Assembly: GCA_964402695.1 (NCBI GenBank) | Contig: CAYODK010000003.1 | Location: 22,697 to 86,696 of the forward strand | DNA: 64,000 bases | DNA from: an uncultured Verrucomicrobiota bacterium | GTDB taxonomy: Bacteria > Verrucomicrobiota > Kiritimatiellia > PWTM01 | Reading direction: 5' to 3' | Part shown: piece after piece, positions 22,605-56,014 of the stretch | Layout: every line of letters starts with the position of its first letter | How positions within the stretch are numbered: position 1 is the first letter of the stretch | Notes under the pieces: model-generated | Database searches by the model: none | Seen by the model: the letters and a program-made list of their open reading frames with translations, nothing else | Told to the model about the DNA's origin: nothing | Made by a program: the position numbers and the translations under genes

Positions 22605-22612
22605 TCCGCCGC

Positions 22613-22800: not shown

Positions 22801-22818
22801 AACGAAGGGGGGCGATGC

Positions 22819-28415: not shown

Positions 28416-28592
28416 AGGGCGGGCGTTGGCGGGGACGGAAACCGAGGGAGCTGGCGTCCGGAATCACATCCTGATGGAGGGGCGAGCTACCGCGAGCCCG
28501 AACGCAGCGCACCCGATGGGGCGCATCTGCGTTTCATTGCATCGAGGACAACGATGCTCGCGCGGGCTTCCCGTTCGGCCGGGCGAGCCGCC

Positions 28593-28631
28593 CGGCCCTA
28601 CCACGGTTTCCATGGGCACGCATGGTAGGGC
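28593..28631. other. Stem-loop: 10-bp perfect inverted repeat ggccctacca / tggtagggcc with 19-nt loop inside a 490-bp intergenic region
   Basis: Read directly. Function unknown. Confidence 0.35.
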
Positions 28632-28817
28632 CGGACCGCCGGGCCGGCCGTTCGATGGATCCCCGAAGCCATGCAGGCTCTGCGAAGCGCCGGCCCGATG
28701 CAGGTCAATGAATCGCCCCTCCCGATGCATCCCCCCGCCGGCCTCGCATAGCTCGGCCCTCCATCCTAGGAAAGGGGACGAGGTCGGGGGACCCGGGAGG
28801 ACGGCGCCGGGCGGGGA

Positions 28818-32239: not shown

Positions 32240-32361
32240 TTCGCGACAGTTTCCTGTCGCCTCATGTCCGTCTTTGCCCTCCGCCGGCTTCCGCGAAAGG
32301 ATCGTGGGTGCGGCACGATTCGTATTGACGGTGCGAATGTTTCGTATTGTACTTACGAATC

Positions 32362-33591: not shown

Positions 33592-34035
33592 AGTGTCACG
33601 CTCCACTTGAATCGCCGGGACTTCCCGAGCCCCCGCATCGGCATGGGCCGATCCGCTCCTGCCTGTCCGCCGGAGCCTCGGGTTGCGAAGGCGAAAGCGG
33701 ATCCCCGCGGTGCTCGCGGGAGATGAAGATCGCTGCGCTCAACGACGACCGCGCCGTCATCGAGCGCATTCCGCCATCGCCCCGGGCGGCTACGACGGAC
33801 AGGCCTGCGCCACCTCGGCCTGTGGCGTGCCCACCATAGCTTCAGCGAAGGAGGGGGACAGGGCGTGCGCGTCACGCCCGCCACCTGCCCCGCGTGGAAG
33901 AAGAAGGCCAGGCCCCTTGCAGCATCGCAGCCCGGAGGCTGAGCCGTCGGCCGGGGTCCCGCGGGGCCGGCTTCAATTCCTTCCTGCGATCGGTCAGGAT
34001 CCGGCCGCGTGGTGCGTTGCATTCATCGGTGCACG

Positions 34036-34563
34036 ATGGCCCTGTCGCACGAAGAGATCATGCGGAGCCTGTTCGCGGCCCGGTCGAGGCTGTCCGCGGC
34101 GGCGTGGGTCGTCGTGCGCGACGCCCAGGCGGCGGAGGACCTTTTCCAGAACGTCGCGCTGAAGGCCATGACGAAGAACGTCGTGTTCGAGCACGAGGGG
34201 GCGTTGCTTTCGTGGGCCACCGTGTCCATCCGGCGCGAGGCGATCGACTGGATCCGGCGTCGCCGGCCCGAACTGCCCGGCCTCGACCCGGACGTTCTCG
34301 ACCTTCTTGACGCGGACGCGCAGGCTTCCGCCGTCGCCGACTCGGGGCGCGTGGGCGCCCTACGGGATTGCCTTGAAGCGGTGCCCGAACCGGCCCGGCG
34401 CCTTCTCGAACTGCGCTATTTCGACGGCCACACGTGCGGCGAGGTGGCCCGCCGGGCCGGGCTCGGGCTCGACGCCGTCTACCAGCGGCTCTCGCGGCTT
34501 CACCGGCAGCTTCGCGCGTGCATCGAACAGCGGCTCGCCGCCGGGGCGGAGGCGGTTCCATGA
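34036..34563 (+). CDS. ECF-type RNA polymerase sigma factor
   Basis: Region-2-like LFQNVALKAM. Region-4 HTH ELRYFDGHTCGEVARRAGLGLDAVYQRLSRLHRQLR. Stop overlaps the anti-sigma start (ATGA). Confidence 0.8.
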   Translation: MALSHEEIMRSLFAARSRLSAAAWVVVRDAQAAEDLFQNVALKAMTKNVVFEHEGALLSWATVSIRREAIDWIRRRRPELPGLDPDVLDLLDADAQASAVADSGRVGALRDCLEAVPEPARRLLELRYFDGHTCGEVARRAGLGLDAVYQRLSRLHRQLRACIEQRLAAGAEAVP

Positions 34564-40677: not shown

Positions 40678-42146
40678 GACGGACGTTGGGATGGGCGATG
40701 GCGCTTTGGATGGCGGGGGTTGCGACACCGGGCGCTGTCGGGGCCTCGCCCGCCGCCACGGAGCCGATGCCGCGCCTCGGCGTCGCCCCGAACGGCCGGC
40801 ATCTGGTGCAGTCGGACGGGACGCCATTCTTCTGGCTCGGCGACACCGCCTGGCACCTGTTCGGCAAGTCCGTGCGCGAAGACGCGACGAACCAGCCTTC
40901 CGTCACCCGCTATTTCGCGGCGCGGGCCGCCCAGGGATTCACCGTGATCCAGTCCGTGATGGTCCGCGAGACCGACGGGGGGCCGGCGCGGAACGAGGCC
41001 AATGCGTACGGGCACGTTCCGTTCGAGGAGGGCGACGCGTCGCGGCCGCGGATTCGACCCGGGGCCGACGACGACTACTGGGACCACATCGGGTGGTGCA
41101 TCGACGAGACGGCCCGCCACGGGCTCCGCATGGCCGCGCTGCCGGTTTGGCTGCAGGATATCGAGGATGACGATCCGTTGGCTGCGGATCCGACGGTCGC
41201 CTATCGCTACGGACGCTTCCTCGGCACCCGCTGGGGCCGGTCGCCGTCGGTGGTCTGGGTGCTGGGTGGCGACGCATGGAAGAAGGGCCGCAACGTCGAC
41301 ACCCCCTCCCGGCTCGCGCTCGTCCGTGCGATGGCCGAGGGCATAGCGGACGGCGCGACCGGGTCCGACGCCTTCGACGGTGCGGCCCGCTGGGATGCGG
41401 TGCTGATGACCTTCCATCCGCCCGGCGGCGGACATTCCTCATCCGAATGGCTGCACGACGAGCCGTGGCTCGATTTCAACATGATCCAGACGACCACGCG
41501 CTTCTCGTTCGACAACTGGCGCACCGTGGCGCGCGACTTCGCCCGGACTCCGCCGAAGCCGACCTTCGACGCCGAGGTCGCCTACGAGGAGTCGCTCTCG
41601 CTGCGCAAGACCGAGCGACAGGACATCCGCATCCGACCGTGGGATGTGCGCCGCGCCGCCTGGTGGGGCGTGCTCTCCGGCGGCTGCGGCCACACCTACG
41701 GTCACCGCAGCTTCATCGGGTGGATTCGGAAGGGCGAGACCTACAAGCACGGGGCGCACATCCCGTGGGTCGAGCGTCTTGATGCGCCCGGGGCCACGCA
41801 GATGATCCACCTCCGTCGCCTGGTCGAGACGTGCCGCTTTCACGACCACACGCCCGCGCCGGAGTTGATCGAGGGCGGTCCCGGCGACGGCGACGCACGA
41901 ATCCAGGCCGCGCGCTCCGCCGATGGCCGCGTGGCCCTGGTCTACACGCCCATGGGCCGCGCCATCGCCCTCCGAGGCGACCGCTTCGGCGCACCGGCGG
42001 ACGCGTCCTGGTACGATCCGCGCACCGGCGAGACGACCGGGATCGGGCCGTTGTCCGCTTCCGCGGGCCGCCCCTTCCGTCCGCCGACCTCCGGCGAGGG
42101 TTGCGATTGGGTCCTGGTGGTTCGTGCACGGGAGGAGCAACGATGA
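40674..42146 (+). CDS. DUF4038-domain glycoside hydrolase (GH140/apiosidase-like)
   Basis: Signal MRRTLGWAMALWMAGVATPGAVGA. DGTPFFWLGDTAWHLF N-terminal motif of DUF4038. Confidence 0.7.
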   Translation: MRRTLGWAMALWMAGVATPGAVGASPAATEPMPRLGVAPNGRHLVQSDGTPFFWLGDTAWHLFGKSVREDATNQPSVTRYFAARAAQGFTVIQSVMVRETDGGPARNEANAYGHVPFEEGDASRPRIRPGADDDYWDHIGWCIDETARHGLRMAALPVWLQDIEDDDPLAADPTVAYRYGRFLGTRWGRSPSVVWVLGGDAWKKGRNVDTPSRLALVRAMAEGIADGATGSDAFDGAARWDAVLMTFHPPGGGHSSSEWLHDEPWLDFNMIQTTTRFSFDNWRTVARDFARTPPKPTFDAEVAYEESLSLRKTERQDIRIRPWDVRRAAWWGVLSGGCGHTYGHRSFIGWIRKGETYKHGAHIPWVERLDAPGATQMIHLRRLVETCRFHDHTPAPELIEGGPGDGDARIQAARSADGRVALVYTPMGRAIALRGDRFGAPADASWYDPRTGETTGIGPLSASAGRPFRPPTSGEGCDWVLVVRAREEQR

Positions 42147-44983
42147 ACGCGATGAGGTGCCGCACTTTTCGATGTCTCGACCCGCGGGGGCCACTCGCGC
42201 GGGCGTGGGGCGCGGTGTCCGGCACCGCCGTCAGGCCCGTACTTCTGGCTGTCGTCGCGCTCGCGGCCGCGGCCCCGGCGGCGGAGAACCTGGTGCGGAA
42301 CGGGTCCTTCGAGGGCGCGCTGCTCTACTGGCACGGGGTCAGCCCGTCGAACCACGCGCTCGCGCGCGGGGCGCGGTGCGGCGACTACGCGCTCCAACTC
42401 CGCAAGGGCGCCGTGATGAGCGCGCCGTTCGTCTGCGAGCGCGGGAAGAATTACACGGTGAGCTTCTTCGTCCGGGGCGAGACGCCATGCGAGGTCCACG
42501 TGCAGATGCCGCCGAGCGCCCGCGAGGAGGGACAGAAGGCGGGGCGGCTGTGGTCGCGCGAAGGGACGAAGTCGGCGAAGGTCGGAACGGCGTGGCAGCG
42601 CGTTTCGTTCTCGTGGCCGGCCGATGTGCCGCCGAGCGGCTTCTGGCCGAATCCGCACTACATGGCCCAGATCGAACCACGCGGGGGCACGATCCTGGTC
42701 GACGGCATGACCGTCACGGAGGGCGACACGGGAACGGACGACTACGTTCCGCGCCGCCCCGTCGAGGTCGTCGCCGAATGTCCCGACCTGCCCGGCTACG
42801 AAGGCGCGAAGGCAAACCTGTTCGCGACCGGCGCGACGGTCCGCGTCACGGGACACGTCTCGAATCCGGGCGCCGCGGACCGCGAAGTGCGCCTCTGCTG
42901 GCAGTTGTTCGACTACGAGGGCGAGCGGCCCGTCGGCCAGCCGGTCGTGAAGGACATCCGCGTGCCCGCCGGAAGGACCGCGAGCGAAACGGCGCTGCTT
43001 CAGCTCACGGCCAGCGGCTGCGTTCTTGCCCGCGTCAGCGTCCTCGATGCCTCCGGGATTTCGACGAAGGGCCCGTCGCGGCTCGACGCGTCCGAGATCC
43101 CGCTGACGTCCCTGCCCTATCCGAAGGCGGCCGTGAAGCCGGACTGGCGGGAGCGCTTCGGCGGTTCGTTCGCGGGCGGAACCGGGTGCGTCGACAAGTT
43201 CCGCGCGCTGGGCTTCGGCTGGATCCGCTGGCGGCCGCACATGAACGGCCAGGACCACTGGCCCGACCGCGACGCGCCGATGCTCTTCTTCGACAAGGAA
43301 CTCGACGAGCAGGAGTCGCGCGGCTGCTCGACCCACTGCGTGCTCTATCCGCCGCCGAAGTGGATCATGGAGAAGGGCCATCCGCTGCCCACCGACATGC
43401 GGTGGGCGGCGGACGATCTGCGCTGGGACGACCTCGCCGTCGAGACCACCTGGGACCGCTTCGTCAAGGCGGCGGTCGGGCACTACCGGGGGCGTTCGCT
43501 CATCTACGAGATCGAGAACGAGCCGGAATTCGACAAATGGGACGACCACCTGGAGCAGTACGCGAAGTTCACGATCCGCACCGCGAAACTGATTCGTCAG
43601 ACCGATCCCGCCGCGAAGATCATGGTGAACAACGTCTATGGCATCCCCAGCAAGGTGAACGCGGCCTTCTTCAAGGCGGGCGGGCTGAAGTTCATCGACG
43701 TGATGTCCTGGCACGACTACCACGAGGGATGGCTCGCCGACGCGACGGGTATCAAGCGGATGCGGCAGAACATGGACGAGGCCGGCGGCAGGAACGTTGA
43801 GATCTGGTTCAACGAGGGCTGGGCGTTCTCCAACACGGCCGTCGACGAGCCGATCGCCTGCACGCGGCTGACCGCCGCGCAGAGTTGCAACGCGATCGTG
43901 GACTCCGTCGCCGAACTGAGCGCCAACGGGCAGGCGAAGACGATCCTGTTCCACGTCGCGTACGAGACGCACGGCATGAGCTTCTGGGACTACAGCGGCC
44001 CCGGCACGATGCTGTGGGACTGGTACGACCTGCCGATGCCCCTCGTGGCCGCCTGGAACGTGCTCGCGCACCACATCGGCGTCAGCGAGGCCGTCGGGTT
44101 CGTCCGCCCGCCCGGCGCCAGCGTGTGCATCTTCGACGACCTCCGCAACAGGCGCGGCGTGATGATCGCCTACGCGGACCGCGACGCGAAGACCGACGCG
44201 GTCGTCGACCTTCCCGACGTCGGCGCCCCGCTGGTCGCCGAGGACATCATGGGCAACGCGGCCTCCGCGCCCGCGCGGCTCGTGCTGTCGAAGACCGGGC
44301 GGCCGGTGATCCTGTACGCCGCGCGCCCCGTCGGCGGGCGCGTCTTCTTCGACCGGCTGGCTCCGCTCGACCGGAAGCACGCGGGCTTCGTCCGCACGGG
44401 CAAAGGCGGCGCGCGGACGTGGTCGCTTCCGCCCGCATGGGAGGGAACGGCCAAGGGGTCGCCCGACGGCAGCGCGGTGCTCGCCGACGGCCGGCCCGTC
44501 TGGAAACTCGAGCAGGTCTGGCCGCCGGAACCGCGAAAGCCTGCGAACTACCGGCCGATGGTCTGGAGCGGAACGGCGTGGAACGTGGCCGAGGGCGGGT
44601 TCGGCGGCCAGCCCGGCGCGGGTCTCCGCGACAGCGCGATGGTCCTTTCCACCCGCGCGGCGCACGGCCAGCCGCCGCAACGCCGGTTCTGCGCGCTGGT
44701 CTTCGTCGCGCCGGATCCCGGCCGCTACACGCTCCGGGGCACGGTCCGCGCCCGCATCTGGGACGGCAGGCAGACGACCGTCCTCCGGCTGCTGCGCAAG
44801 AACGCCGCCGACGCGGTGGAGATCGCGCGGATGTCGGTCGCACACGGCGCGTCGGCTGCGCTGGACTGGCCTGCTGTCGAACTGGGCGCCGGCGACGAAC
44901 TGGTTCTGCTGCCCGAGATCGAGGGCATGTACGCCGGCGGCGACCTGGCGATCGAAGACCTCTCCGTGGCCGGCGCTCCGTGA
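42143..44983 (+). CDS. clan GH-A glycoside hydrolase with N-terminal CBM4/9-like module
   Basis: Signal. ENLVRNGSFEGAL..W. IYEIENEPEF (NEP acid/base) and VEIWFNEGW nucleophile region. Confidence 0.65.
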   Translation: MNAMRCRTFRCLDPRGPLARAWGAVSGTAVRPVLLAVVALAAAAPAAENLVRNGSFEGALLYWHGVSPSNHALARGARCGDYALQLRKGAVMSAPFVCERGKNYTVSFFVRGETPCEVHVQMPPSAREEGQKAGRLWSREGTKSAKVGTAWQRVSFSWPADVPPSGFWPNPHYMAQIEPRGGTILVDGMTVTEGDTGTDDYVPRRPVEVVAECPDLPGYEGAKANLFATGATVRVTGHVSNPGAADREVRLCWQLFDYEGERPVGQPVVKDIRVPAGRTASETALLQLTASGCVLARVSVLDASGISTKGPSRLDASEIPLTSLPYPKAAVKPDWRERFGGSFAGGTGCVDKFRALGFGWIRWRPHMNGQDHWPDRDAPMLFFDKELDEQESRGCSTHCVLYPPPKWIMEKGHPLPTDMRWAADDLRWDDLAVETTWDRFVKAAVGHYRGRSLIYEIENEPEFDKWDDHLEQYAKFTIRTAKLIRQTDPAAKIMVNNVYGIPSKVNAAFFKAGGLKFIDVMSWHDYHEGWLADATGIKRMRQNMDEAGGRNVEIWFNEGWAFSNTAVDEPIACTRLTAAQSCNAIVDSVAELSANGQAKTILFHVAYETHGMSFWDYSGPGTMLWDWYDLPMPLVAAWNVLAHHIGVSEAVGFVRPPGASVCIFDDLRNRRGVMIAYADRDAKTDAVVDLPDVGAPLVAEDIMGNAASAPARLVLSKTGRPVILYAARPVGGRVFFDRLAPLDRKHAGFVRTGKGGARTWSLPPAWEGTAKGSPDGSAVLADGRPVWKLEQVWPPEPRKPANYRPMVWSGTAWNVAEGGFGGQPGAGLRDSAMVLSTRAAHGQPPQRRFCALVFVAPDPGRYTLRGTVRARIWDGRQTTVLRLLRKNAADAVEIARMSVAHGASAALDWPAVELGAGDELVLLPEIEGMYAGGDLAIEDLSVAGAP

Positions 44984-45035
44984 CCGCGCCGGCCCCGGTT
45001 CGTGGACAGTGGCACGGGTGCGGGAGGGATGGACG

Positions 45036-46631
45036 ATGAGGATGCAGGCGGTGGCGATGGCGGTGGCGGCGGCCCTGGGCGTGCCGGGGCTCGCGGGGAC
45101 GGGGATGGCCGCGCAGCCGGCGGAGGCGCCCGCCGCGACGCGGCTGGGGATCAACCTCGCCGGCCCGGCGGACTGGAACAGCGAACTGCCGTTCGTCGAT
45201 GTCTTTCGCCAGTCGAGACCGTGGATCAGCCAGAAAGAGGGCGCCGCGTGGGGCAAGGGGCCGGACCTCGCGCTGGACGAGTTCGGCTGGGTGAAGCGGC
45301 TGGAGCCCGGCTGCTACGCCGAGAGCATGCTCTGCACGGTCGGCGGCGGACACTACCCCGGCGGCGTCTACACGGTCCTCTACGAGGGCGAGGGAAAGCT
45401 GGGCGTCGGACACAACGCGAAGATCGTCGACGCCGCGCCCGGCCGGATGCGCGTCGACGTCGATTCGTCCAAGGGCGGCTGGTCGCTGCAGATCCGCGAG
45501 ACGAACCCGCAGAACCCCGTGCGCGACATCCGCGTCCTCATGCCCGGCTTCGAGGCGACGGGGCAGACCGAGCCGTTTCATCCGGTCTTTCTGAAGCGAT
45601 GGAAGGGCTTCGCGTGTTTCCGGTTCATGGACTGGATGCATACCAATGGCTCGGAGATCCGCACGTGGGCCGACCGCCCGACGCTGCGCCACGCGACGTT
45701 CTCCAGGCGCGGCGTCGCGCTGGAATGGATGATCGACCTGTGCAACCGCCAGAAGGCCGATCCGTGGTTCTGCATGCCGCACCTGGCCGACGACGACTAC
45801 GTGCGACGGTTCGCGCGCATGGTGAAGGAGCGGCTGGACCCGGGACGGAAGATCTACATCGAATATTCCAACGAGGTCTGGAACGGCCAGTTCGCGCAGA
45901 GCCGGTACGCCGGCGAGCAGGGCGTGAAGCTCGGCCTCGGTCCGAAGGACAAGCCGTGGGAGGCGGGCTGGCACTATACCGCCGTCCGGTCGGTGGAGAT
46001 CTTCCGCATCTGGGAGGAGGTCTTCGGCGGGCACGACCGGTTCGTCCGCGTGCTGCCCGTGCAGACCGGCGTCGGCGCGGTCGCGGACGGCGTGTGCGGC
46101 TTCCGCGACGCCGCGAAGCACGCCGACGCGATGGCCGTCGCGCCGTACATGGGCTACAGCATCGGGCGCGGGAAGACGGCGGACCTCGGCCCGACGATGC
46201 GCGACTGGACCGCGGACCAGATGCTCGACCACTTCGAGAAGACCGGCTTCGCCGACGCCCTGCAGCGGATGGCGAAAGACAAGGCCTCCGCCGCGAAGCA
46301 CGGCCTCGCGCTCGTCGCCTACGAGGGCGGGCAGCACATGGTCGCGTTCGTGAAGGACCGCGACCTCACGGCGGCCCTCACGAAGACGATGCACGCCTGC
46401 AACCGGCATTCGCGGATGGGCGACCTCTACCGGCGCTATTTCGCGGAATGGGCCCGGCTCGGCGGCGGCACGTTCTGTCACTTCTCCAGCATCGGCAACT
46501 GGAGCAACCACGGCGCGTGGGGGTTGGCCGAACACTACGACAGCCGGCCCGCCGACTACCCGAAGCTGGCCGCGGCCCTGGATTGGGCGAAGACGCTCGG
46601 CCAGCCGGTTGAACTCGAGGCCCGCAAGTGA
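45036..46631 (+). CDS. clan GH-A (GH5-like) glycoside hydrolase
   Basis: Signal MRMQAVAMAVAAALGVPGLAGTGMAA. IEYSNEVWN. Confidence 0.6.
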   Translation: MRMQAVAMAVAAALGVPGLAGTGMAAQPAEAPAATRLGINLAGPADWNSELPFVDVFRQSRPWISQKEGAAWGKGPDLALDEFGWVKRLEPGCYAESMLCTVGGGHYPGGVYTVLYEGEGKLGVGHNAKIVDAAPGRMRVDVDSSKGGWSLQIRETNPQNPVRDIRVLMPGFEATGQTEPFHPVFLKRWKGFACFRFMDWMHTNGSEIRTWADRPTLRHATFSRRGVALEWMIDLCNRQKADPWFCMPHLADDDYVRRFARMVKERLDPGRKIYIEYSNEVWNGQFAQSRYAGEQGVKLGLGPKDKPWEAGWHYTAVRSVEIFRIWEEVFGGHDRFVRVLPVQTGVGAVADGVCGFRDAAKHADAMAVAPYMGYSIGRGKTADLGPTMRDWTADQMLDHFEKTGFADALQRMAKDKASAAKHGLALVAYEGGQHMVAFVKDRDLTAALTKTMHACNRHSRMGDLYRRYFAEWARLGGGTFCHFSSIGNWSNHGAWGLAEHYDSRPADYPKLAAALDWAKTLGQPVELEARK

Positions 46632-48058
46632 AGCCCGCGCCCACCGCGCCGCGCCTCGTCTGCCTGGGGCTGCTGCTTGCCGTTTCGCCCGCATCCAGTC
46701 AGGAAGGCCGGCCGGCGGCGGGCGGCAGGCCCAATGTCCTCTTCATCATCGCCGACGACCTCAACCGCAGCCTGCCGTGCTACGGCCATTCCATCGTCAA
46801 GACGCCGAACGTGGACCGGCTGGCGGCGCGGGCGGTCCGCTTCGACCGCGCCTACTGCCAGTATCCGGTGTGCAGCCCGTCGCGCGTTTCGTTCCTGAGC
46901 GGGCGGCGGCCGGAACAGACGCGGATGTTCGGCAACGAGGACGCCTCGCGCACGCCGTCGCTGAAGGACGCCGTGTTCCTGCCGGAGTTCTTCCGGCAGC
47001 AGGGCTACTTCACCGCGCGCGTCGGCAAGGTCTTTCACATCGGCCGCGACGTGCCGGAGTGCTGGGACGTGACCGAGGAAGGCACGCCGGACGGCAAGGT
47101 CATCTACCAGCCCCAGGAGCCGGACAAGCTCGGCCTGCGGGAGAGCATCGCGCAGGAGGGCGAACTCGACGGCGACACGGGCGAAGGCGGGCACTGGTAC
47201 CGGCTCGCGCCCGTCGAGGAGAAGCTGATCGACCCGAGCACCGCGCGTCGCGTTTCGGCACTGATCGAACAGGGCGCGACGGGCGGCCGGCCGTTCTTCG
47301 TCGCGTGCGGTTTCCGCCGTCCGCATCTCCCGTGGATGGCGCCGGAGGAGTTCTTCGCGCCCTACCCGCCGGAGACCCTGCCGCTGCCGGCCCGGGGCGA
47401 GGTGCCGCGCCCCGTCGGCCCGGTGCAAGGCAAGGCGCCCGCCGCGTCGGACGACTCGCGGCGCGCCGCCCTGCGCGCCTACTTTGCCTGCATCAGCTTC
47501 ATGGACCGGCAGCTCGGCCGCGTGCTCGACACGATGGACCGGCTCAAGCTCTGGGACAACACGGTCGTGCTGCTGCTCGGCGACAACGGCTACCACCTCG
47601 GCACGCGCGGCGGCTACTGGGGCAAGGGCACGCCCTACGAGGAAAGCTGCGGCGTGCCGCTGCTGATCGCCGCTCCCGGCAGGGCCAAGGCGGTCGGTTG
47701 CCCGCGCGTGGTGGAATACGTGGACTTCTACCCGACGCTCGTCGACCTCTGCGGCCTGCCCGCGCAGCGCGACCTGGCCGGCCGCAGCCTGCGCCCGCTG
47801 CTCGACGATCCCGCCGCGCCGTGGGGCCACGCCGCATTCAGCATCAACGCCCGGAACAACCAGCCGTGGAATCTCGCCGTCAGCACCGAGCGGTTCCGGT
47901 ACATCGAATACGCGGATGAGAAGAAGCCGTGCGAACTCTACGACATCCAAACCGACCCGCGCGAGTGGACGAATCTCGCCGCCGCACCGGAGCACGCCGC
48001 GACGCTGGATGCTCTGCGGAAGCTGGCGGCGGAGCACCGACAGAGATTCTGGAGGTAG
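46628..48058 (+). CDS. sulfatase
   Basis: GTG start overlapping the previous stop. PNVLFIIADDLN. CQYPVCSPSRVSFLSGRRP. Confidence 0.9.
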   Translation: MKPAPTAPRLVCLGLLLAVSPASSQEGRPAAGGRPNVLFIIADDLNRSLPCYGHSIVKTPNVDRLAARAVRFDRAYCQYPVCSPSRVSFLSGRRPEQTRMFGNEDASRTPSLKDAVFLPEFFRQQGYFTARVGKVFHIGRDVPECWDVTEEGTPDGKVIYQPQEPDKLGLRESIAQEGELDGDTGEGGHWYRLAPVEEKLIDPSTARRVSALIEQGATGGRPFFVACGFRRPHLPWMAPEEFFAPYPPETLPLPARGEVPRPVGPVQGKAPAASDDSRRAALRAYFACISFMDRQLGRVLDTMDRLKLWDNTVVLLLGDNGYHLGTRGGYWGKGTPYEESCGVPLLIAAPGRAKAVGCPRVVEYVDFYPTLVDLCGLPAQRDLAGRSLRPLLDDPAAPWGHAAFSINARNNQPWNLAVSTERFRYIEYADEKKPCELYDIQTDPREWTNLAAAPEHAATLDALRKLAAEHRQRFWR

Positions 48059-48061
48059 GTC

Positions 48062-49339
48062 ATGAAGCGCACGCTTGAAGTGCTGGCCGTCGTCCTCGCC
48101 CTGGCGGCCCCGGCGGTGGAGGGCGCGCCGCGCTGGGAGATCCGGGCGGCGGGAGGCGGCTGGCAATTGCTCCGCGACGGCCGGCCGTTCCACATCGAGG
48201 GCGCCGTCGCGCCGAACCGGTTCGACGTGCTGGCCGCGTGCGGCGGCAACGCGGTGCGCGTCAATGCCAGCCGCAAGGCGCTCGACGCGGCGCAGGGAGC
48301 CGGTCTCGCCGTCATGGCCAACCTTCCCGTCCGCGGCGAGCGCAACCAGCTCGACTGGGACAACGCCGGGCAGGTCGCCGAACAGAAGGAGAAGGTCCTC
48401 GCGGTGGTGCGCGAGTTGAAGGACCACCCGGCGCTGATGTTCTGGTCGATCGGGAACGAGCTCGACCACATCCCCGGCAACCGGCGCTACAACCCCGCCA
48501 TCTGGGCGCGCCTGAACGACCTCGCCGTCGCCATCAAGCAACTCGACCCGCATCATCCGGTGATGACCGTCGTCGGCACCGGTCACTTTGAGACGAAGGT
48601 TCAGGAGATCGCCGCCGGCTGCAAGGACATGGACCTTCTCGGCATCAACGCCTACGGCGACATCGCGCGGGCGTGCGAGCTGGCCCGCGCGCATTGGCCG
48701 AAGGCGTACGCCGTCACGGAATGGGGGCCGACCGGTCACTGGGAGGTTCCGAAGACGGCCTGGCGCGCGCCGATCGAGCAGACCAGCAGCGAGAAGGCGA
48801 AGGTCATCGAGGAGCGGTATCGCAACGTCATCCTCGCCGACCGGACGCGCTGCCTTGGCTCGTTCGTCTTCTACTGGAGCGAGAAGCAGGAGACGACGCA
48901 CACGTGGTACGGCCTCTTCTGCGACGGCCTGCGCACCGAGTCGATCGATGTGATGCAGCATCTCTGGACCGGGGCGTGGCCGTCCAATCGCGCGCCGGCG
49001 ATCGCAGGGCCGGCCATCGAGGGCGTTGCCGACCCACGGGCCGTCGTGCTGAAGGCCGGAGCGGCGCACCGCGCCTCGGTCCGGGTGACGGATCCGGACG
49101 GCGATCCGCTTGCGTACACCTGGGACATCCGTCCGGAGGTCGTGATCCCGCCCGGCTCCTACGCGGGGGGACTTGAGAAGCGCGCCGAGCCGGTCCCCGG
49201 CCTCGTCCGCGAGCCCGCCGCGGCGGCGACCGGATTCTCCGCGCCGCTCGCGCCCGGGGCCTACCGCCTCTTCGTCGCGGTCGCCGACGGCCGCGGCCAC
49301 ATCGCATACGGCAACGTGCCGTTCCGGGTGGAGGAGTAG
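48062..49339 (+). CDS. clan GH-A glycoside hydrolase
   Basis: Signal MKRTLEVLAVVLALAAPAVEGA. WSIGNEL and AVTEWG motifs. Confidence 0.65.
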   Translation: MKRTLEVLAVVLALAAPAVEGAPRWEIRAAGGGWQLLRDGRPFHIEGAVAPNRFDVLAACGGNAVRVNASRKALDAAQGAGLAVMANLPVRGERNQLDWDNAGQVAEQKEKVLAVVRELKDHPALMFWSIGNELDHIPGNRRYNPAIWARLNDLAVAIKQLDPHHPVMTVVGTGHFETKVQEIAAGCKDMDLLGINAYGDIARACELARAHWPKAYAVTEWGPTGHWEVPKTAWRAPIEQTSSEKAKVIEERYRNVILADRTRCLGSFVFYWSEKQETTHTWYGLFCDGLRTESIDVMQHLWTGAWPSNRAPAIAGPAIEGVADPRAVVLKAGAAHRASVRVTDPDGDPLAYTWDIRPEVVIPPGSYAGGLEKRAEPVPGLVREPAAAATGFSAPLAPGAYRLFVAVADGRGHIAYGNVPFRVEE

Positions 49340-49342
49340 GCC

Positions 49343-49485
49343 ATGATGCACCGCGGGCTGACGTTCGGGCTCCTGCTGGGCTGCGCCGCGGCCGCGGCCG
49401 GAGGGCCGACGCAGGAGACCCTCCGCGCCTTCTATTTCGGCAACAGCCTGACTGACCGCGCGGCGGGGACAGAGATGATCGGATT
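49343..49485 (+). pseudogene. N-terminal remnant of an SGNH-like lipoprotein, truncated where a dispersed repeat begins
   Basis: MMHRGLTFGLLLGCAAAAAGGPTQETLRAFYFGNSLTDRAAG (lipobox LLGC; FYFGNSLTD, compare VYHIGNSHTD of the 38698 gene). The downstream frame dissolves into repeat-derived sequence. Confidence 0.3.
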
Positions 49486-49560
49486 CGTAGACACGGCACC
49501 CCCGCCGCGTTTCCCGGGAGGGGCAGCGGCCCCGCTGCCCGAGCGCGGGATCCCCGTCCC
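49462..49560. repeat. Dispersed repeat, copy A (upstream flank of the ATPase gene)
   Basis: ggggacagagatgatcggattcgtagacacggcacccccgccgcgtttcccgggaggggcagcggccccgctgcccgagcgcgggatccccg, ~85% identical to 50983..51085. A second shared segment gtttccgagaggcgcc..gccttctcc lies at ~49700 and ~51140. Confidence 0.7.
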
Positions 49561-49650
49561 GCCGTTTCCTCCGCACGAACCCCTGATCCGGCCGTCGGGC
49601 TTGTCGCGCCGGAGCGTAAGCGAAGGCGGAGCCGGCGGCCCTCCCGACCC

Positions 49651-50922
49651 TCACCCTCCTCTCGCGGGGGCGGCGTCCCAGGGGATCACGATGTCGGTTT
49701 CCGAGAGGCGCCACGCCTTCTCCACGGGTGCGACCACCAGCCCGGGAGCGATCGAAAGGCCCGGGTAGGTGGCGCGAAAGGCGCCGATCCCGCGGGCGTC
49801 GTTGCGCGACAGTCGCGTGGAGGCCTTGATCTCGACGGGGTGATATCGCCCGTCCCGTTCCAGGATCAGATCGACTTCCGCGCCGCCATGCGACCGCCAG
49901 TGATACAAGGCGGGCGGCGCGGACATGCGGCTGCACAGGCGTCGAACCTCGCCCGCAGCCGCGGTTTCGACCAGCGCGCCCAGCGCCGGGTGGGACGCGA
50001 TCGCCGATGGGCTGGAGATCGCCAGCGCCATGCAGGCGATGCCGGTATCGGCGATGTACCCCTTGGCCTTGCCCGACACGCGCTTGACGGTGTTGCCCGA
50101 GAAGGCCGGCGTCTCGAACCACTGAAACGAGGACTTCAGAATCGCCAGCCAGTGGGCGGCCGTCTTCGGATTGATCCCGATGTCACGCCCCAGATGGGCG
50201 AAGTTGATCTCCTGCGCGGTCAGCGCAGCGGCGAGCCTCAGGAACCGGCCGAACAGCTGGCCGTCGGACACATCCGCCATCAGACGAACATCCCGCTCGA
50301 TGTAGGTCCGCTGGTAGCCCTCGTGGAACGAGCGCACCCCGTCCAGGGGCAGCCGCCGCGCCTCCGGCAACGCGCCCCGGTACAGGTACTCGTAGGGACC
50401 GACGGGAAGCCCGCGCGATATCCACGCCAGGGCCGTTTCGGGCTCCGGTGCCCGGAGCCAGTCCTCGATCCAGGACATCGACGGAGAGGCCGCGCCGCAC
50501 CACTCCGCCATTTCGAACCCATGCAGATCGAGGAACACCGCGCGGCCGGCCAGGCTTTCCGACAGGCTGCGCATTACGGCCCATTGCTGGCTTCCAGTCA
50601 GAAGAAACCGGCCCGGACGACGGTCGCGATCCACCGCGCGCTTGACCGCAGCCGCGAGTTCCGGGGCGTACTGGATTTCGTCGAGCACCAACGGCTCGCG
50701 GTGGTTCTTCAGGAAGAGATCCGGATCCCGGCGGGCACCCTCCACATCGTACGAAGGATCGAACGTCACGTAGTCCGCATCCGGAAGGATGTGACGAAGC
50801 AGTGTCGACTTTCCCACCTGCCTTGCGCCCGTCACCACCACCACCGGAAAGAGACTGAATAGCCTCGTCAGCCGTTCCGTGACCTGACGATACGTATAGT
50901 TATCTTGATTTGCGGTATCCAT
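49651..50922 (-). CDS. AAA-family ATPase with DUF4143-like domain (paralog of 32362..33591)
   Basis: Start at Met20 of track ORF 49651..50979: MDTANQDNYTYRQVTERL...VVVVTGARQVGKSTLL Walker A. Somewhat lower GC than its neighbours. Its C-terminal codons overlap repeat segment 2. Confidence 0.75.
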   Translation of the reverse strand: MDTANQDNYTYRQVTERLTRLFSLFPVVVVTGARQVGKSTLLRHILPDADYVTFDPSYDVEGARRDPDLFLKNHREPLVLDEIQYAPELAAAVKRAVDRDRRPGRFLLTGSQQWAVMRSLSESLAGRAVFLDLHGFEMAEWCGAASPSMSWIEDWLRAPEPETALAWISRGLPVGPYEYLYRGALPEARRLPLDGVRSFHEGYQRTYIERDVRLMADVSDGQLFGRFLRLAAALTAQEINFAHLGRDIGINPKTAAHWLAILKSSFQWFETPAFSGNTVKRVSGKAKGYIADTGIACMALAISSPSAIASHPALGALVETAAAGEVRRLCSRMSAPPALYHWRSHGGAEVDLILERDGRYHPVEIKASTRLSRNDARGIGAFRATYPGLSIAPGLVVAPVEKAWRLSETDIVIPWDAAPARGG

Positions 50923-50982
50923 AGGACTGATATTCAAGAAAAGTATGCCTACATCTGAACAAGAGCAAGCCTGATCCACGGT

Positions 50983-51180
50983 CGTTCGGGGACAGCGATG
51001 CGCGCAGTCGTAGACGCGGCGCCCCCGCCGCGTTGCCCGTGCCCGGGAGGGGCAGCGGCCCCGCTGCCCGAACGCGGGATCCCCGCAGCCATGCAGGCTC
51101 CGCGATGCGTCCGCAGGATCGGGTCAACGAAGCGCAGATGCGCCCGTTTCCGAGAGGCGCCGGGCCTTCTCCGCGCGCGG
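50983..51180. repeat. Dispersed repeat, copy B (other flank of the ATPase gene); its right part (gccatgcaggctc..gcga.gcg) also occurs at ~28650-28720
   Basis: Read directly. Confidence 0.7.
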
Positions 51181-51245
51181 GTTTCGTGCTACACGGAGTG
51201 TGGCGGGCCGACGGACCGGGCGCGCCGGACCCGCGGGAGGACCGG

Positions 51246-52733
51246 ATGAGAACGACGATCGTCGTGATGGCGCTTCGGTTCCTGGTCGGCTGGCACTTCC
51301 TCTACGAGGGGCTGGCCAAGATCGTGCAGCCCGGCGGCTGGTCCGCGGCCGGCTACCTGCGGATGAGCCAGTGGTTCGCCGCCCCCCTGTTTCATCACAT
51401 CGCCGACACGCCGGCGCTGCTGCGCGCGTGCGATCTGCTGAACATGGGAGGGCTGACGCTGATCGGACTCGCGCTGATCCTTGGCGTGTTGGTCCGCCCG
51501 GCGGCGCTCTGCGGCATCGCGATGCTGGCCTTCTACTACATCGCGCAGCCACCGTTCCTTGCGTGGTCGGCCGAGGGGCATTTCCTCTGGATCGACCGCA
51601 ACGTCGTCGAGGCGGCTGCGCTGGCGGTGATCGCGCTGCTGCCGTCGGCCGATCTCGGCCCGTGGATCGCCGCGAGGCTGCGCGCCCGCCGCGGGTCGGC
51701 GGAGGGCGCCGCAACGGTCGCCCAGCCGCCGGCCTCGCAGACCCGGCGCGATCTTCTGCTGCGCCTCGGCTCGCTGCCGGTGCTCGGCGCGTTCGGGTTC
51801 GCGTTCCTGCGCAAGCACGGGCCCGTCTGGGAACGCGAGAACCTGAGGGACCGCGTGGATGTCGTGACGACCGCCACAGTGAAGGCGTTCGACTTCGCCG
51901 ACATCAAGGATCTCAAGAAGCCGATCGACAAGTTCGGGAAGATCGGCAACCTGAAACTCAGCCGGATGTTTCTCGGTGGAAACCTGATCGGCGGCTGGGC
52001 GCATGCGCGCGACCTGCTCTACGCCGACAAGCTCGTGAAGGCCTATTTCACCGACGACCGCGTCTTCCGGACCTTCCGCATGGCCGAGGCGTGCGGCATG
52101 AACGCGATCCTCACCAACCCGGCGCTGATGCGGGTCATCAACGATTACTGGAAGAAGGAAGGCGGGAAGATCCAATTCATCTCCGACTGCGGCCACAAGG
52201 ACGGCCTGATCCGCGGCGCGGAGCTGTCGGTCGAGCACGGCGCCAGCGCGGTCTACACCCACGGCGGCCGGTCGGACCAGCTCGCGGCCGGCGGCGCGTT
52301 CGGCGAGATTGCCAAGGCGCTCGACGCGATGCGCAGGCTCGGGGTGCCGGCGGGAATCGGCGCGCACCGGCTCGAGACGGTCAAGGGCTGTGTCGAACAC
52401 GGCATCATCCCCGACTTCTGGATGAAGACGCTGCACCACACGAAATACTGGTCCGCCCATCCCGAGGCCGGCTACTACTCCCACGACAACGTCTGGTGCC
52501 TGGACGCCGACGACGTCGTCACCTACATGGAGCAACTCGAACAGCCGTGGATCGCCTTCAAGATCCTCGCCGCCGGCGCGATCCAGCCGCACGAGGCCTT
52601 CCCCTACGCCTTCCGGAGTGGCGCCGACTTCATCTGCGTCGGGATGTACGACTTCCAGCTCGTCGAGGATGTCAACCTCGTGAACACCATCCTCGACGCC
52701 CCCATCGAACGCCGCCGCCCCTGGTGTGCATGA
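51246..52733 (+). CDS. DoxX-family membrane domain fused to ~330-aa uncharacterised soluble domain
   Basis: MRTTIVVMALRFLVGWHFLYEGLAKI DoxX-like N-terminus with 4 TM segments. The C-terminal domain is not recognised. Confidence 0.6.
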   Translation: MRTTIVVMALRFLVGWHFLYEGLAKIVQPGGWSAAGYLRMSQWFAAPLFHHIADTPALLRACDLLNMGGLTLIGLALILGVLVRPAALCGIAMLAFYYIAQPPFLAWSAEGHFLWIDRNVVEAAALAVIALLPSADLGPWIAARLRARRGSAEGAATVAQPPASQTRRDLLLRLGSLPVLGAFGFAFLRKHGPVWERENLRDRVDVVTTATVKAFDFADIKDLKKPIDKFGKIGNLKLSRMFLGGNLIGGWAHARDLLYADKLVKAYFTDDRVFRTFRMAEACGMNAILTNPALMRVINDYWKKEGGKIQFISDCGHKDGLIRGAELSVEHGASAVYTHGGRSDQLAAGGAFGEIAKALDAMRRLGVPAGIGAHRLETVKGCVEHGIIPDFWMKTLHHTKYWSAHPEAGYYSHDNVWCLDADDVVTYMEQLEQPWIAFKILAAGAIQPHEAFPYAFRSGADFICVGMYDFQLVEDVNLVNTILDAPIERRRPWCA

Positions 52734-52773
52734 CGCCCTTGATTTGTGATGACCGGTCATATAGACTGGTCAT

Positions 52774-53007
52774 ATGAAGACGATGAGCGCGTCGCAGTTC
52801 AAGGCGGAGTGTCTCCACATTCTGGATGTGGTTAGCCAGACGGGGGATCCGATCACAATTCTGAAGCGTGGAAAGCCGGTGGCTCAGGTGGTTCGGGCTC
52901 CGCAGGGCACGCAGAAGCCGTGGCTTGCCCTGGCCGGGAGCGGTCGCTTCGAGGGCGATCCCCTTGCGCCGGCGATCGGCGAGGACGAGATCGAGGCGCT
53001 CCGGTGA
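52774..53007 (+). CDS. Phd/YefM family antitoxin
   Basis: 77 aa. MKTMSASQFKAECLHILDVVSQTGDPITILKRGKPVAQVV. Confidence 0.8.
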   Translation: MKTMSASQFKAECLHILDVVSQTGDPITILKRGKPVAQVVRAPQGTQKPWLALAGSGRFEGDPLAPAIGEDEIEALR

Positions 53008-53408
53008 AGCGACCTCTGCTGGATACGCACATCTGGATCTGGTGGATGATCCGGTCCGAAGAGCTTCCAACGGAGAGCGCGAGTCGTCTCGACGCGATGC
53101 CGACCGACCGACGCCCCCTCGTGTCCGCGATCAGCCTCTGGGAAGTCGCGACACTGGTGGAACGGGGACGCCTCAAACTGGATCGGGACCTCCGCGCCTG
53201 GCTTCGGATCGCCGCGGCGGCGGAATGTGTCGAGCTTGTGCCGATCACACCGGACATCGCCGCAGAAACCGCCGCCCTGCCTCCGGACCTTCATCGTGAC
53301 CCGGCAGACCGGATCCTCATCGCCACGTCCCGCATCCTCGGTTGCCCGGTCTTCACCCGCGACGACCGGATCCGCCAGTCGGGGCTCGTCGACCTTTGGT
53401 CGGACTGA
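53004..53408 (+). CDS. vapC: PIN-domain toxin VapC
   Basis: GTG start overlapping the antitoxin stop. VKRPLLDTHIWIWWM...HRDPADRILIATS. Confidence 0.8.
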   Translation: MKRPLLDTHIWIWWMIRSEELPTESASRLDAMPTDRRPLVSAISLWEVATLVERGRLKLDRDLRAWLRIAAAAECVELVPITPDIAAETAALPPDLHRDPADRILIATSRILGCPVFTRDDRIRQSGLVDLWSD

Positions 53409-53497
53409 CCGGTGGCGCCCGATCCCGTCTCGCGTTGGAGGCCGCCAACGGCTAGGCTGTGCGGGCCGGCCGCGGAGCGCGCGCCGGTCCCGGAGAG

Positions 53498-56014
53498 ATG
53501 CTCGTGAAGCCGAACACCGACCCGTCCGTCACCGACGCGAACGACCGGCCCCGACGGGGTCTGGGCGCGGGGATCCTCCTGGCCTTCCTCCTGCTCGCCT
53601 CGCTGGGCATGGCGAAGGTGCTGCTGCGCCCGGACCACGTACTCGACTTCAACGACGGCAACATCGAGTCGGTCCTCTCGCCGACCTTCGCGCTGCCCGA
53701 CGCGATCCTGCGAGTCTGGGACAACCAGTTCTTCTTCGGCCAGGGCGGCAAGCTGTTCTCCCTCTCCTCGGCCAGCATCGGCGAATCGCTGATGGGGCCG
53801 CACGAGTACCGGCGCATCTTCGTGGCGCTCCTGGTCGCGCTCGCCGGGGCGGGCGTCTACTGGATGCTTCGCCAGTTCCGCATCGCCCGCGCGGCCGCCG
53901 CGCTCGCGGCCGGGGCCGTGATGCTCGGCGGCACATGCTACACGTTCTCCGTGCTGGGGCTGATGGTCCGCGCCGGGGCGCTCGGCTTTGCGGCGCTCGC
54001 GACGGGCTTCCTCGAGCGGGGCCGGCGCGACGGCGCCTGGATCCCCTATGCCCTCGGCGGCGGGTGCCTGGGCCTCGCCCTCTCCGAGGTGCCGGACATC
54101 GGTGTGTTCCTGGCGGTCGCGACGGCGGGCATCTGGCTCTGGACGCACTGGCCGGAGGCGCCGGCGAAGGCCCCGTGGGCGAAGCTGGCCGGCCGGTTCG
54201 CGCTGTACGTCGTCTGCAGCGGCCTGCTGGCGTGGCAGACGATCGGCGTGATGTTCGCGACGCAGGTGGAGGGCGTGCAACAGGGCGCCGCCGAGGATCC
54301 CGCCGAACGATACGCCTGGGCGACGCAGTGGAGCCTGCCGCCGGAAGAGACGTGGAACCTGGTCTCGGGAACCTACTTCGGCACGACGTCGCGCTCGGCG
54401 GACGCGCCGTACCGCGGCCGGATGGGCCGCAGCCCCGGCTGGGAGACGACGAAGCAGGGGTTCCGCAACTTCTCGCTGACCGGGCACCACCTCGGTGTCG
54501 TCCCGTCGATCCTGCTGCTGACCGCAATCGCCGTCGCCCTGGCGGGGCCGCGCGACCGCCGCCGGCTGGCATGGCTGGCCGTCGCCGGGGGCGGCGTCTC
54601 CCTCCTGCTCGCGATGGGCAAGTTCACACCGCTGTACCGGCTCGTCTTCTCGCTCCCCTACTTCAGCACCATCCGCAATCCCGAGAAGTGGATGGTCCCG
54701 TTCGTCCTGTTCGCCGCGCTCGGCATCGCGCTGGCGGTCGAGGCGCTTCGCAATCCGTCCGGCGAGGAGTCCCGGCGCGTGCGCCGCTGGACGCTCTGGA
54801 CCTGCGCCGGGATCGGCGGGCTCTCGCTGCTGCTGCTCGTTGCGACCTTCGCCGGGAAGTCCGGGTTCCTCGCGCAGATGCAGGCCGAAGGCTATGGCGA
54901 GCAATCCGCCGCCGCCTGGTCGGCCGCCGTCCTGGCGTGCCTGAAGACCGCCGCGATCGCAGGGGTCTTCGCGCTGGCCGTGGGTGCGATGTCCCGGCCC
55001 GTCTCCCTCTCGTTCTCCCGCCGGGCGGCCCTGCTGACGGCGGCCGCAGGGGTCCTGACCGGGCTCGATCTCCTGGCGGTCAACGGCCACTACGTCGCCG
55101 GCCGCACCTACGGCGCGGTGCTGACCCCGAACCCGCTGCGGCAGTTCATCGACGCCCATCGCGGCGACGGCCGGTTCAAGATGCTCCCGCCCACGCACCC
55201 GGCGCTGAACAACATCCGCATGAGCCACATGCAGGTGTCGGGATGCGACCTCTTCGACCCGGTCAGCGTCTCGCGCATGCCGACGGACTACGCCGCGCTG
55301 TTCGAGGCGCTGCAGCCCCTCCCGATGCGGATCTGGGAACTGGGCGGCGTGCGCTACTTCGTCACCCTGCCCGGCGGCGCGCAGCAGCTCGAGCAGGCCG
55401 ACGGCGGGCGGGGCCGCGTGAAGGAGGTCTTCGCGGCCGGCATCGCGCAGATGGACAACGCCCTCGTCCCGGTCGACGGCGCCCCGGCGGACCAGCAGGT
55501 CCTTCGAATCGCCGAGTTCTCCGGCGCCCGGCCGAAGATCGCCTTCTCCACCCGCGTGACCGCCGTTCCCGTCACGGCCGACGGCGAGAAGGCCGCGCTG
55601 GCCCGGCTCGCGGCGCCGGACTTCGACGCCGCCTGCGAGGCGGTCGCCCACGGGGAGCCCGCCCCGCCCGCCGCGCCGGCGGAGGCGAAGGTGCTGCGCA
55701 CCGCGCGTGACGAACCCGCCGACGCCGCGGTCGAGGTGGAAACCCCCGCCCCCGCCCGTCTGACCCGCACGACCAAGTTCGATCCCGACTGGAAGGTGCG
55801 GATCGACGGCGCCCCGGCCGCCCTGCTGCGCGTGAACTCCACGTTCCAGGGCGTCGTCATCCCCGCCGGCCGCCACACCGTCGACTTCGAGTACCGCCCC
55901 GACCGCAGCTCGCTTGCCGTCGCCGCCGCCGGCCGCCTCGGCTGGCTCGGCCTCTGGCTCGTCTGGCTCGTCTGGCTCGTCCGCCGTCGAGCCGAACTCA
56001 CACAGAGGCGCTGA
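53498..56014 (+). CDS. large polytopic membrane protein, YfhO/GT39(ArnT-PMT)-like putative glycosyltransferase
   Basis: ~839 aa. More than 10 predicted TM helices at the N-terminus and middle, periplasmic C-terminal region, final TM (LGWLGLWLVWLVWLV). Start at Met14 of track ORF 53459. Confidence 0.55.
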   Translation: MLVKPNTDPSVTDANDRPRRGLGAGILLAFLLLASLGMAKVLLRPDHVLDFNDGNIESVLSPTFALPDAILRVWDNQFFFGQGGKLFSLSSASIGESLMGPHEYRRIFVALLVALAGAGVYWMLRQFRIARAAAALAAGAVMLGGTCYTFSVLGLMVRAGALGFAALATGFLERGRRDGAWIPYALGGGCLGLALSEVPDIGVFLAVATAGIWLWTHWPEAPAKAPWAKLAGRFALYVVCSGLLAWQTIGVMFATQVEGVQQGAAEDPAERYAWATQWSLPPEETWNLVSGTYFGTTSRSADAPYRGRMGRSPGWETTKQGFRNFSLTGHHLGVVPSILLLTAIAVALAGPRDRRRLAWLAVAGGGVSLLLAMGKFTPLYRLVFSLPYFSTIRNPEKWMVPFVLFAALGIALAVEALRNPSGEESRRVRRWTLWTCAGIGGLSLLLLVATFAGKSGFLAQMQAEGYGEQSAAAWSAAVLACLKTAAIAGVFALAVGAMSRPVSLSFSRRAALLTAAAGVLTGLDLLAVNGHYVAGRTYGAVLTPNPLRQFIDAHRGDGRFKMLPPTHPALNNIRMSHMQVSGCDLFDPVSVSRMPTDYAALFEALQPLPMRIWELGGVRYFVTLPGGAQQLEQADGGRGRVKEVFAAGIAQMDNALVPVDGAPADQQVLRIAEFSGARPKIAFSTRVTAVPVTADGEKAALARLAAPDFDAACEAVAHGEPAPPAAPAEAKVLRTARDEPADAAVEVETPAPARLTRTTKFDPDWKVRIDGAPAALLRVNSTFQGVVIPAGRHTVDFEYRPDRSSLAVAAAGRLGWLGLWLVWLVWLVRRRAELTQRR

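Follow-up and report, generated by a model that had tools for sequence, protein, structure and literature searches.

A gene for a predicted AAA+ ATPase with a DUF4143 domain lies within a 64-kb stretch of contig CAYODK010000003.1 from an uncultured Verrucomicrobiota bacterium (in the following called the window; overall GC content ~71%), bracketed by two copies of a dispersed repeat that resembles miniature inverted-repeat transposable elements (MITEs). To its left lie the remains of an SGNH-like gene and a glycoside hydrolase (GH)-like gene, to its right a gene for a DoxX-fusion membrane protein (Table 1). By comparison with loci of related genomes, designated by L numbers, we delineated a lineage-specific segment of ~1.7 kb, comprising the ATPase gene and the two MITE-like copies, that probably replaced ~2.2 kb of ancestral DNA. 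An earlier reading of the window from its letters alone (the sequence-only reading) had noticed the gene and its flanking repeats and suggested that the ATPase had arrived as a cassette or had been rearranged by recombination between the repeats.

Table 1 Features of the ATPase locus and two related features elsewhere in the window
Feature	Position	Strand	Remarks
GH-like (TIM-barrel glycosidase-like) gene	48062..49339	+	native; last fully conserved gene leftward; weak Pfam Glyco_hydro_2_C match
SGNH-like gene, 5′ remnant; left breakpoint	49343..49452	+	~37 codons; signal peptide and FYFGNSLT motif
Left repeat copy, MITE-L	49464..49650	+	part A 49464-49556; 3′ half 49557-~49648, ending GCCGGCGGCCCTCCCGACC like the L008 element; no canonical terminal repeat found; nhmmer 49493-49591, E 8e-17
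AAA_14 + DUF4143 putative ATPase-nuclease gene, PADLOC PDC-S01 type	49651..50922	-	intact, 423 amino acids; Pfam, PADLOC, motifs, AlphaFold2
Block B	49697..49726	-	genuine coding segment, ATPase 3′ end (VEKAWRLSET)
AT-richer region upstream of the ATPase	50923..50986	-	presumed promoter; 500-nt interval 50501-51000 with GC 0.588, lowest of the 64 kb
Right repeat copy, MITE-R	50987..51145	+	part A′ 50987-51085; 3′ part like the 28.5-kb copy; terminus intact, 51125-51145; nhmmer 51018-51124, E 7e-22
Block B′	51146..51175	-	27/30 identical to B; abuts the MITE-R terminus; minus frame AEKARRLSET
DoxX-fusion membrane protein gene	51246..52733	+	native; first conserved gene rightward; Pfam DoxX
Reference repeat copy	28512..28727	+	202-nt element 28519-28720; 7-bp duplication CCCGATG at 28512-18 and 28721-27
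Second PDC-S01-type ATPase gene	32347/32363-33591	+	37% identical to the first; PADLOC PDC-S01 E 1e-112

Gene order in relatives and the two breakpoints

The left breakpoint lies within the SGNH-like gene. Orthologs of the GH-like gene occur in L012 and L023 (79% amino acid identity), each with a full-length SGNH gene directly downstream that encodes 365-370 amino acids (L023 9285-10382; L012 9282-10394), with the N-terminal sequence ...VRAFYFGNSLTG. In the window, the gene is cut after codon 37, so that the SGNH-lipoprotein gene fragment seen by the sequence-only reading is indeed a truncated gene. Nucleotide homology stops at 49452 (...AACAGCCTGAC), tblastn homology at 49453, and the remaining ~330 SGNH codons were not found anywhere in the window.

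On the right, the DoxX-fusion gene has a relative with 94% amino acid identity (P0121) on the 17 contigs read (10 places shown). On both sides of the locus, the close relative L035 (GC 0.71) and the window are colinear, at ~90% nucleotide identity (L035 5521-8603 corresponds to window 45031-48110, and 9912-11494 to window 51159-52738), and the ATPase is absent from it. Between the matched blocks L035 carries a 5′ remnant of the GH gene, a 3′ remnant of the SGNH gene and an MR_MLE (enolase-superfamily) gene. The two remnants are joined within 189 nt (8551-8740), to which the GH gene contributes ~120 nt from its 5′ end and the SGNH gene its last ~25 codons (...AVREAIGHVLANHPIAGPERKP); the MR_MLE gene encodes 387 amino acids and ends 98 nt ahead of the DoxX start codon. 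The gene order is GH, full-length SGNH, MR_MLE in L012 and GH, full-length SGNH in L023.

The most parsimonious account of these arrangements is an ancestral order sulfatase, GH, SGNH, MR_MLE, DoxX. The L035 lineage would then have deleted most of GH and SGNH, a deletion of its own at the same locus, while the window lineage would have lost the 3′ part (90%) of SGNH together with MR_MLE (~2.2 kb) and have gained ~1.7 kb (49453 to ~51160) in their place. With this separate deletion in L035, the GH-SGNH-MR_MLE-DoxX interval is a recurrent rearrangement site. Each of the relatives compared (L035, L072, L012, L023) has different DNA ahead of the DoxX gene.

In a database of 5.8 billion clusters the ATPase found, apart from itself, no match above 64% identity, and its best matches are ~60% identical, with hundreds of members in many phyla; its neighboring genes, in contrast, have relatives of 90-94%. 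Since L035 lacks the ATPase, L012 has the order given above and the ATPase stands so far apart from its neighbors in this respect, the locus points to a lineage-specific acquisition with replacement and not to a simple insertion. The composition of the gene deviates in the direction that the sequence-only reading had described, GC below the neighbors, but mildly: its GC is 0.663 and its GC at third codon positions (GC3) 0.81, the bottom of the range of 25 other genes (0.81-0.96, typically ~0.92). The deviation lies in codons 1-120 (GC3 0.63-0.75), and the remainder is host-like.

Alternatively, the ATPase would have been ancestral at the locus and lost in the relatives, and the repeats would be ordinary intergenic hairpin repeats that played no part in the rearrangement. 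Differential loss does occur here, as the variable DoxX-upstream region and the GH-SGNH deletion of L035 attest. However, L035 keeps the SGNH 3′ end and MR_MLE precisely at the ATPase position and L012 has contiguous SGNH and MR_MLE, so independent precise losses would be needed. With the 64% ceiling on database relatives and the atypical GC3 in the 5′ third of the gene also against it, we regard ancestral presence as very unlikely.

Of the two earlier suggestions, arrival as a cassette is partly supported. The ATPase did arrive in this lineage, at a rearranged site where L035 has the enolase-like gene instead, but probably by replacement with loss of ~2.2 kb of ancestral DNA and not by simple insertion into the SGNH gene; the repeat pair has no target-site duplication (TSD) around it and lacks the outer left terminus. 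Recombination between the repeats does not fit, as both copies, which are direct repeats, lie inside the novel segment and are not pre-existing native repeats.

The MITE-like repeat family

The two flanks of the ATPase gene match over 49464-49556 and 50987-51085 with 84/99 identities (85%), one 6-nt gap and a pairwise E of 9e-30, as had been read from the sequence; the 44-nt core of this repeat A had 0 chance matches in 100 shuffles. A third partial copy, placed at 28650-28720 by the sequence-only reading, is real and larger, namely the 202-nt reference copy at 28.5 kb. Its ends form imperfect terminal inverted repeats, GGGCGCATCTGCGTTTCATTGCATCG and, reverse-complemented, AGGGGCGATTCATTGACCTGCATCG. 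In L045, L046 and L047 the site is vacant (...GCAGCGCA / ...GAACGCAGCGCA, then TCCGAAG CATCC...), while the window reads ...GAACGCAGCGCA CCCGATG (202 nt) CCCGATG CATCC..., with a 7-bp TSD around the insertion. This combination of TSD and empty site was found for the 28.5-kb copy only and not for the two ATPase-flanking copies. The 21-mer GGGCGCATCTGCGYTTCRTTG at its terminus occurs in the window only at 28519-28539 (plus strand) and 51125-51145 (minus strand), with 0 occurrences expected by chance.

A core profile searched with nhmmer returned three copies in the window (49493-49591, 51018-51124 and 28591-28704) and one in L008, a metagenome-assembled genome (MAG) that encodes a DoxX protein 78% identical to that of the window and comes from the same assembly as L072. 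There were no copies in L012-L031, L032-L034 and L035-L049, and L072 gave a hairpin-level match only. Across ~55 kb of orthologous DNA of relatives we counted 0 copies, against three in the window. Given the TSD with an empty site in relatives, the common 21-nt terminus and the absence from this orthologous DNA, the repeats form a family of MITE-like, non-autonomous, hairpin-rich mobile elements, active or expanded in the lineage of the window.

The 28.5-kb copy has the hallmarks of bacterial MITEs: it is small and non-coding, has imperfect terminal inverted repeats and a 7-bp TSD, and is polymorphic for presence and absence. A cognate autonomous insertion sequence was not seen; none with matching termini lies in the window. 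We know of no MITE-like element of this sequence family, or of one from this Kiritimatiellota-like phylum. The hairpin GGGCAGCGGCCCCGCTGCCC is also part of compact palindromic units that precede genes in one Kiritimatiellia MAG and in Pontiella. These are 52-nt nested palindromes (GGGAGGG-GCAGCGGCCCCGCTGC-CCGCG-GACGCCGAGGCCGGCGTC-CCTCCC), located ~70-100 nt 5′ of start codons on different contigs (L001, L002, L006 and L007 of the Kiritimatiellia MAG Arabian11_MAG_70, and L003 of Pontiella), whose first hairpin is common to the studied repeat.

Nothing ties the family to DUF4143 genes. The 28.5-kb and L008 copies have no ATPase neighbor, the second ATPase gene of the window has no copy beside it, and comparison of flank against flank at the loci of the closest ATPase homologs, L032 and L034, gave no repeats. 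The sequence-only reading had named two findings that would speak against its cassette, a common intergenic repeat family without association to DUF4143 genes and an ATPase of host composition. The first is what we observed, a dispersed intergenic mobile family; the second is not, given the mild deviation described above.

With two conserved hairpins in each copy, the repeats could also be thought of as integron attC sites, or as part of an ATPase cassette that serves as terminator or structured regulatory RNA. A search of 48000-52500 against Rfam returned no match at E≤1, neither repeat copy had an exceptional folding energy on either strand (z -0.2 to -2.0), and a consensus scan for sigma-70 promoters and terminators had no match. 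Attachment sites of the attC type and terminators have neither TSDs nor terminal inverted repeats, and one copy of this family has both; copies also exist away from any ATPase. By eye, no attC-like core sites and no cassette array were seen, although no integrase scan of the window was made. On the TSD and inverted repeats of the family, Rfam, folding and the terminator scan, we rejected the integron cassette and terminator readings, and consider this whole class of explanation barely credible.

Repetitive extragenic palindromic (REP) sequences and REPINs, mobilized by REP-associated tyrosine transposases (RAYT; Y1 transposases), are likewise hairpin-rich, dispersed and intergenic, and the window contains such a system. 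A RAYT-like Y1 transposase gene at 22819-23598 (259 amino acids, Pfam Y1_Tnp E 2.6e-11), with orthologs in L045 and L048 (87-89% amino acid identity), has clusters of REP hairpins on either side (22605-23733), which occur in both orientations (CCCACCGGGCTTGTCCCGGTGGG / CCCACCGGGACAAGCCCGGTGGG). These REPs, CCCACCGGGCTTGTCCCGGTGGG, are unlike the studied repeat in sequence, and the studied family possesses terminal inverted repeats and a 7-bp TSD; to our knowledge, REPINs lack both. The different REP sequence and the 7-bp duplication set the studied repeat apart from a REPIN/RAYT system. A degenerate RAYT-associated REP loop (GGGCTTGTC / GGCCGTCGGGCTTGTCGCGCCGGA) lies at 49590-49613, in the spacer that separates the left repeat from the stop codon of the ATPase, 76% similar to 23708-23750, and at 976-1190 there are four tandem 43-nt units, each with the same REP-like motif (CCCACCGGGCTTGTC...).

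Proposed assembly of the segment

The common 5′ halves of MITE-L and MITE-R (85%) begin at the identical point (GGGGACAG), and the canonical left terminus is missing. The 3′ halves are unlike, that of the left copy resembling the L008 element and that of the right the 28.5-kb copy; MITE-L resembles L008 3322-3530 along its entire length.

A second block shared by the two flanks, seen earlier at ~49700 and ~51140, is also genuine (B, 49697-49726, versus B′, 51146-51175; 27/30 identical) and colinear with the repeat A pair. It needs one correction: the left block is ATPase coding sequence, in the 3′ end of the gene, and aligns with the conserved C-termini of homologs. B′ (GTTTCCG...) starts exactly one base past the element terminus. 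Within it, at ~51159, the homology to L035 sets in, and comparison with L072 suggests native sequence back to ~51156, which makes B′ a junction and puts the right breakpoint at about 51156-51163, within B′. The block thus opens with 10-16 nt whose sole other occurrence is the ATPase 3′ end, and continues as native DoxX-upstream sequence that resembles the ATPase (17/20). Searching 50923-51260 with tblastn for more ATPase relics yielded only the 10 amino acids AEKARRLSET. Most likely, judged from this short stretch, the 10-16 nt are the relic of a deleted second ATPase copy.

We therefore favor, as on balance the most probable course, a replacement in which the segment from 49453 to ~51160 was installed in this high-GC, Kiritimatiellota/Lentisphaerota-like genome in place of the 3′ 90% of SGNH and the MR_MLE gene. 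The elements, or a transposase acting on them, may have been responsible both for the acquisition and for the deletions beside it. The segment would once have continued into a second ATPase copy, interrupted by the right element 46 nt short of its stop codon, and a short-homology deletion between this copy and similar native sequence would have removed the remainder.

Several observations weigh against this course. The differing 3′ halves of the bracketing copies reflect a mosaic history. Neither copy has a match to the canonical left terminus within 3 mismatches, and there is no TSD around the pair, whose flanks (AACAGCCTGAC on the left and GTTTCCG on the right) are unrelated; because of these two results, transposition of the whole unit is not demonstrated. 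No donor or intermediate state was found. Part of B′ (~51156-51175) is native and recognizable in L035 and L072, so the argument for a second ATPase copy comes from 10-16 non-native bases and the exact abutment to the element, and a short gene-conversion patch is an alternative origin of B′.

The same features bear on the idea of a MITE-bounded composite transposon or translocatable unit, in which the ATPase and its two elements would have traveled together, much as with IS26 or MITE-flanked integrons. Direct copies of a mobile family do bracket a single passenger gene, as in MITEAba12, the Acinetobacter NFM2 MITE around class 1 integrons and MITE-297. Passenger-flanking MITE pairs are documented and have been likened to a composite transposon (PMC6382973). 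Unlike these known pairs, the two bracketing copies have no outer left terminus and no duplication around the composite, are only 85% identical and are mosaic, with different 3′ halves. Moreover, the core scan of genome contigs and the ATPase homolog loci held no second occurrence, and the site shows replacement and deletion, not a clean insertion. We consider a composite unit improbable.

In-situ tandem duplication, which partly overlaps with the favored course, is a possible but clearly less probable alternative. Here, 49445-50967 (1523 nt; SGNH tail, repeat A, spacer, ATPase and promoter) would have been duplicated, and the second ATPase would have decayed by deletions that left A′ and B′, the flanking repeats being the product of this one duplication and not of two element insertions. 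A and A′ are indeed mutually closest (85%), both begin at GGGGACAG without the canonical terminus, and B/B′ are colinear with A/A′. Without gaps, the similarity can also be followed leftward for another 20 nt, into bases derived from SGNH (AGCCTGA; 11/20, including a 7-nt run; Monte-Carlo P ~0.0015). This extension is only 55% identical, however, compared with 85% in A, and as CCYGAY also precedes the proven insertion at 28512, a target preference could explain AGCCTGA; the extension is an ambiguous hint of either. The sequence from A to B (141 nt) is unrelated to that from A′ to B′ (61 nt, with an intact element terminus), and neither the promoter nor the body of a second ATPase gene has left a trace.

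Replacement by a segment carrying the ATPase and two MITE-like copies thus remains our preferred reading. A bolder version, which we think rather improbable, would have the MITE-like elements serve as portable cassette boundaries that shuttle single-gene PDC-S01 ATPase-nucleases into and out of a recombination hotspot upstream of DoxX, with the B′ relic left by an earlier occupant.

The ATPase, other variable islets and their significance

In Pfam, the ATPase matched AAA_14 (E 1.6e-24) and, over the entire 160 positions of the profile, DUF4143 (PF13635, E 1e-37); in PADLOC, its residues 8-417 matched PDC-S01 (PDLC04790, E 3.7e-100). The Walker A (G32-T40, GARQVGKST) and Walker B motifs (D81/E82, LDEIQ) are invariant in 52 homologs, as is the PD-(D/E)XK signature D351...E364-x-K366, which lies on a beta-sheet segment of the AlphaFold2 model (pLDDT 93.5, pTM 0.93). 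Sequence search of the PDB detected no relative, and NCBIfam had no family for either ATPase of the window. With the model, Foldseek found the archaeal AAA+ ATPases PAB2304 (PDB 2qen) and SSO1545 (PDB 2fna) as best matches, then RuvB, MuB, clamp loaders and STAND/Avs ATPases (E 7e-8 to 1e-4). The likeness to PAB2304, SSO1545, RuvB, MuB and STAND/Avs proteins covers the ATPase and winged-helix part at an identity of only 12-18%, and these structures lack the C-terminal D...ExK nuclease-like domain of the window protein. From these predictions, the product is a putative NTP-dependent, DNA-binding nuclease with AAA+, winged helix-turn-helix (wHTH)/DUF4143 and PD-(D/E)XK parts.

PDC-S01, an ATPase fused to a PD-(D/E)XK domain, was proposed as a candidate defense system via 'guilt by embedding'; among the putative defenses of prokaryotes it ranks fourth in frequency, and most such candidates still await validation (PMC12988326). 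A survey of the PD-(D/E)XK superfamily also lists DUF4143/COG1373 (PMC3424549). The window ATPase has the same architecture as PDC-S01 (COG1373; AAA_14 + DUF4143), which it matches over the full length, and, as is true of many members, it stands alone in a variable region near toxin-antitoxin genes; no sequence feature sets it apart. The sequence-only reading had suggested a search for conserved neighborhoods with defense or toxin-antitoxin genes; the closest homolog (P0004, 64%) adjoins PIN and Gp49/HTH toxin-antitoxin genes, a setting usual for defense or addiction cargo of flexible islets. Viral contigs scanned with the ATPase alignment contained distant relatives only (≤38% identity, 22 contigs). 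An anti-phage role is suspected for this candidate; weighing against it, one PDC-S01 representative tested in E. coli B gave no protection from T4, T5 or T7, unlike four candidates that did (bioRxiv 10.1101/2024.09.26.614923).

The second PDC-S01-type ATPase gene of the window, preceded by the palindrome TTCGTA...TACGAA that had been noted from the sequence, belongs to an islet of 6.4 kb (32240-38680) that replaces a 475-amino-acid sulfatase gene of L035. Besides the ATPase gene (32347-33591), this islet encodes an extracytoplasmic function (ECF) sigma factor (33943-34563), a FecR-domain protein (34434-35864) and a 933-amino-acid HZS_alpha-domain protein (35900-38701). A Phd/YefM antitoxin and PIN (VapC-like) toxin pair at 52774-53408 (region 52739-53542) is absent from L035 and L072, which hold an opposite-strand methyltransferase gene in its place; in L035 (11495-12569) a short 3′ relic of PIN (...LFTRDDRIG) is kept. 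A further 4.3 kb (40750-45030) without L035 counterpart contain an apiosidase-like glycosidase gene (40674-42146) and a gene for a 1066-amino-acid protein without Pfam match (41783-44983).

Intergenic heptamer arrays, (GTTGGNT)n, occur in either orientation at 4463-4531, 5307-5366, 15166-15201, 16599-16729 (an inverted pair) and 28824-28868, and the array upstream of a GH26 gene is also present in L045. Several of them are followed ~20-40 nt on by a GCCATGATGC / GGCATGCTG motif just 5′ of gene starts, and further 7-nt periodic runs (GTTTCAA, GGAACTT) lie nearby.

The architecture is no new kind of mobile element but fairly ordinary bacterial genome flux. Within it, the locus provides a breakpoint-resolved example of a PDC-S01 (DUF4143) gene as cargo of the flexible genome in a little-studied phylum. 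Both PDC-S01 genes and the Phd-PIN pair lie in islets that differ from a ~90% identical relative, the pattern expected of defense or addiction genes. A new MITE-like family, for which one insertion is proven, also emerges from the comparison and, together with the RAYT/REP system in the same genome, provides useful markers for the dynamics of Kiritimatiellota-like MAGs. If the MITE-like elements did act as cassette boundaries, this Kiritimatiellota lineage would exchange candidate defense genes by a MITE-dependent, integron-like turnover.

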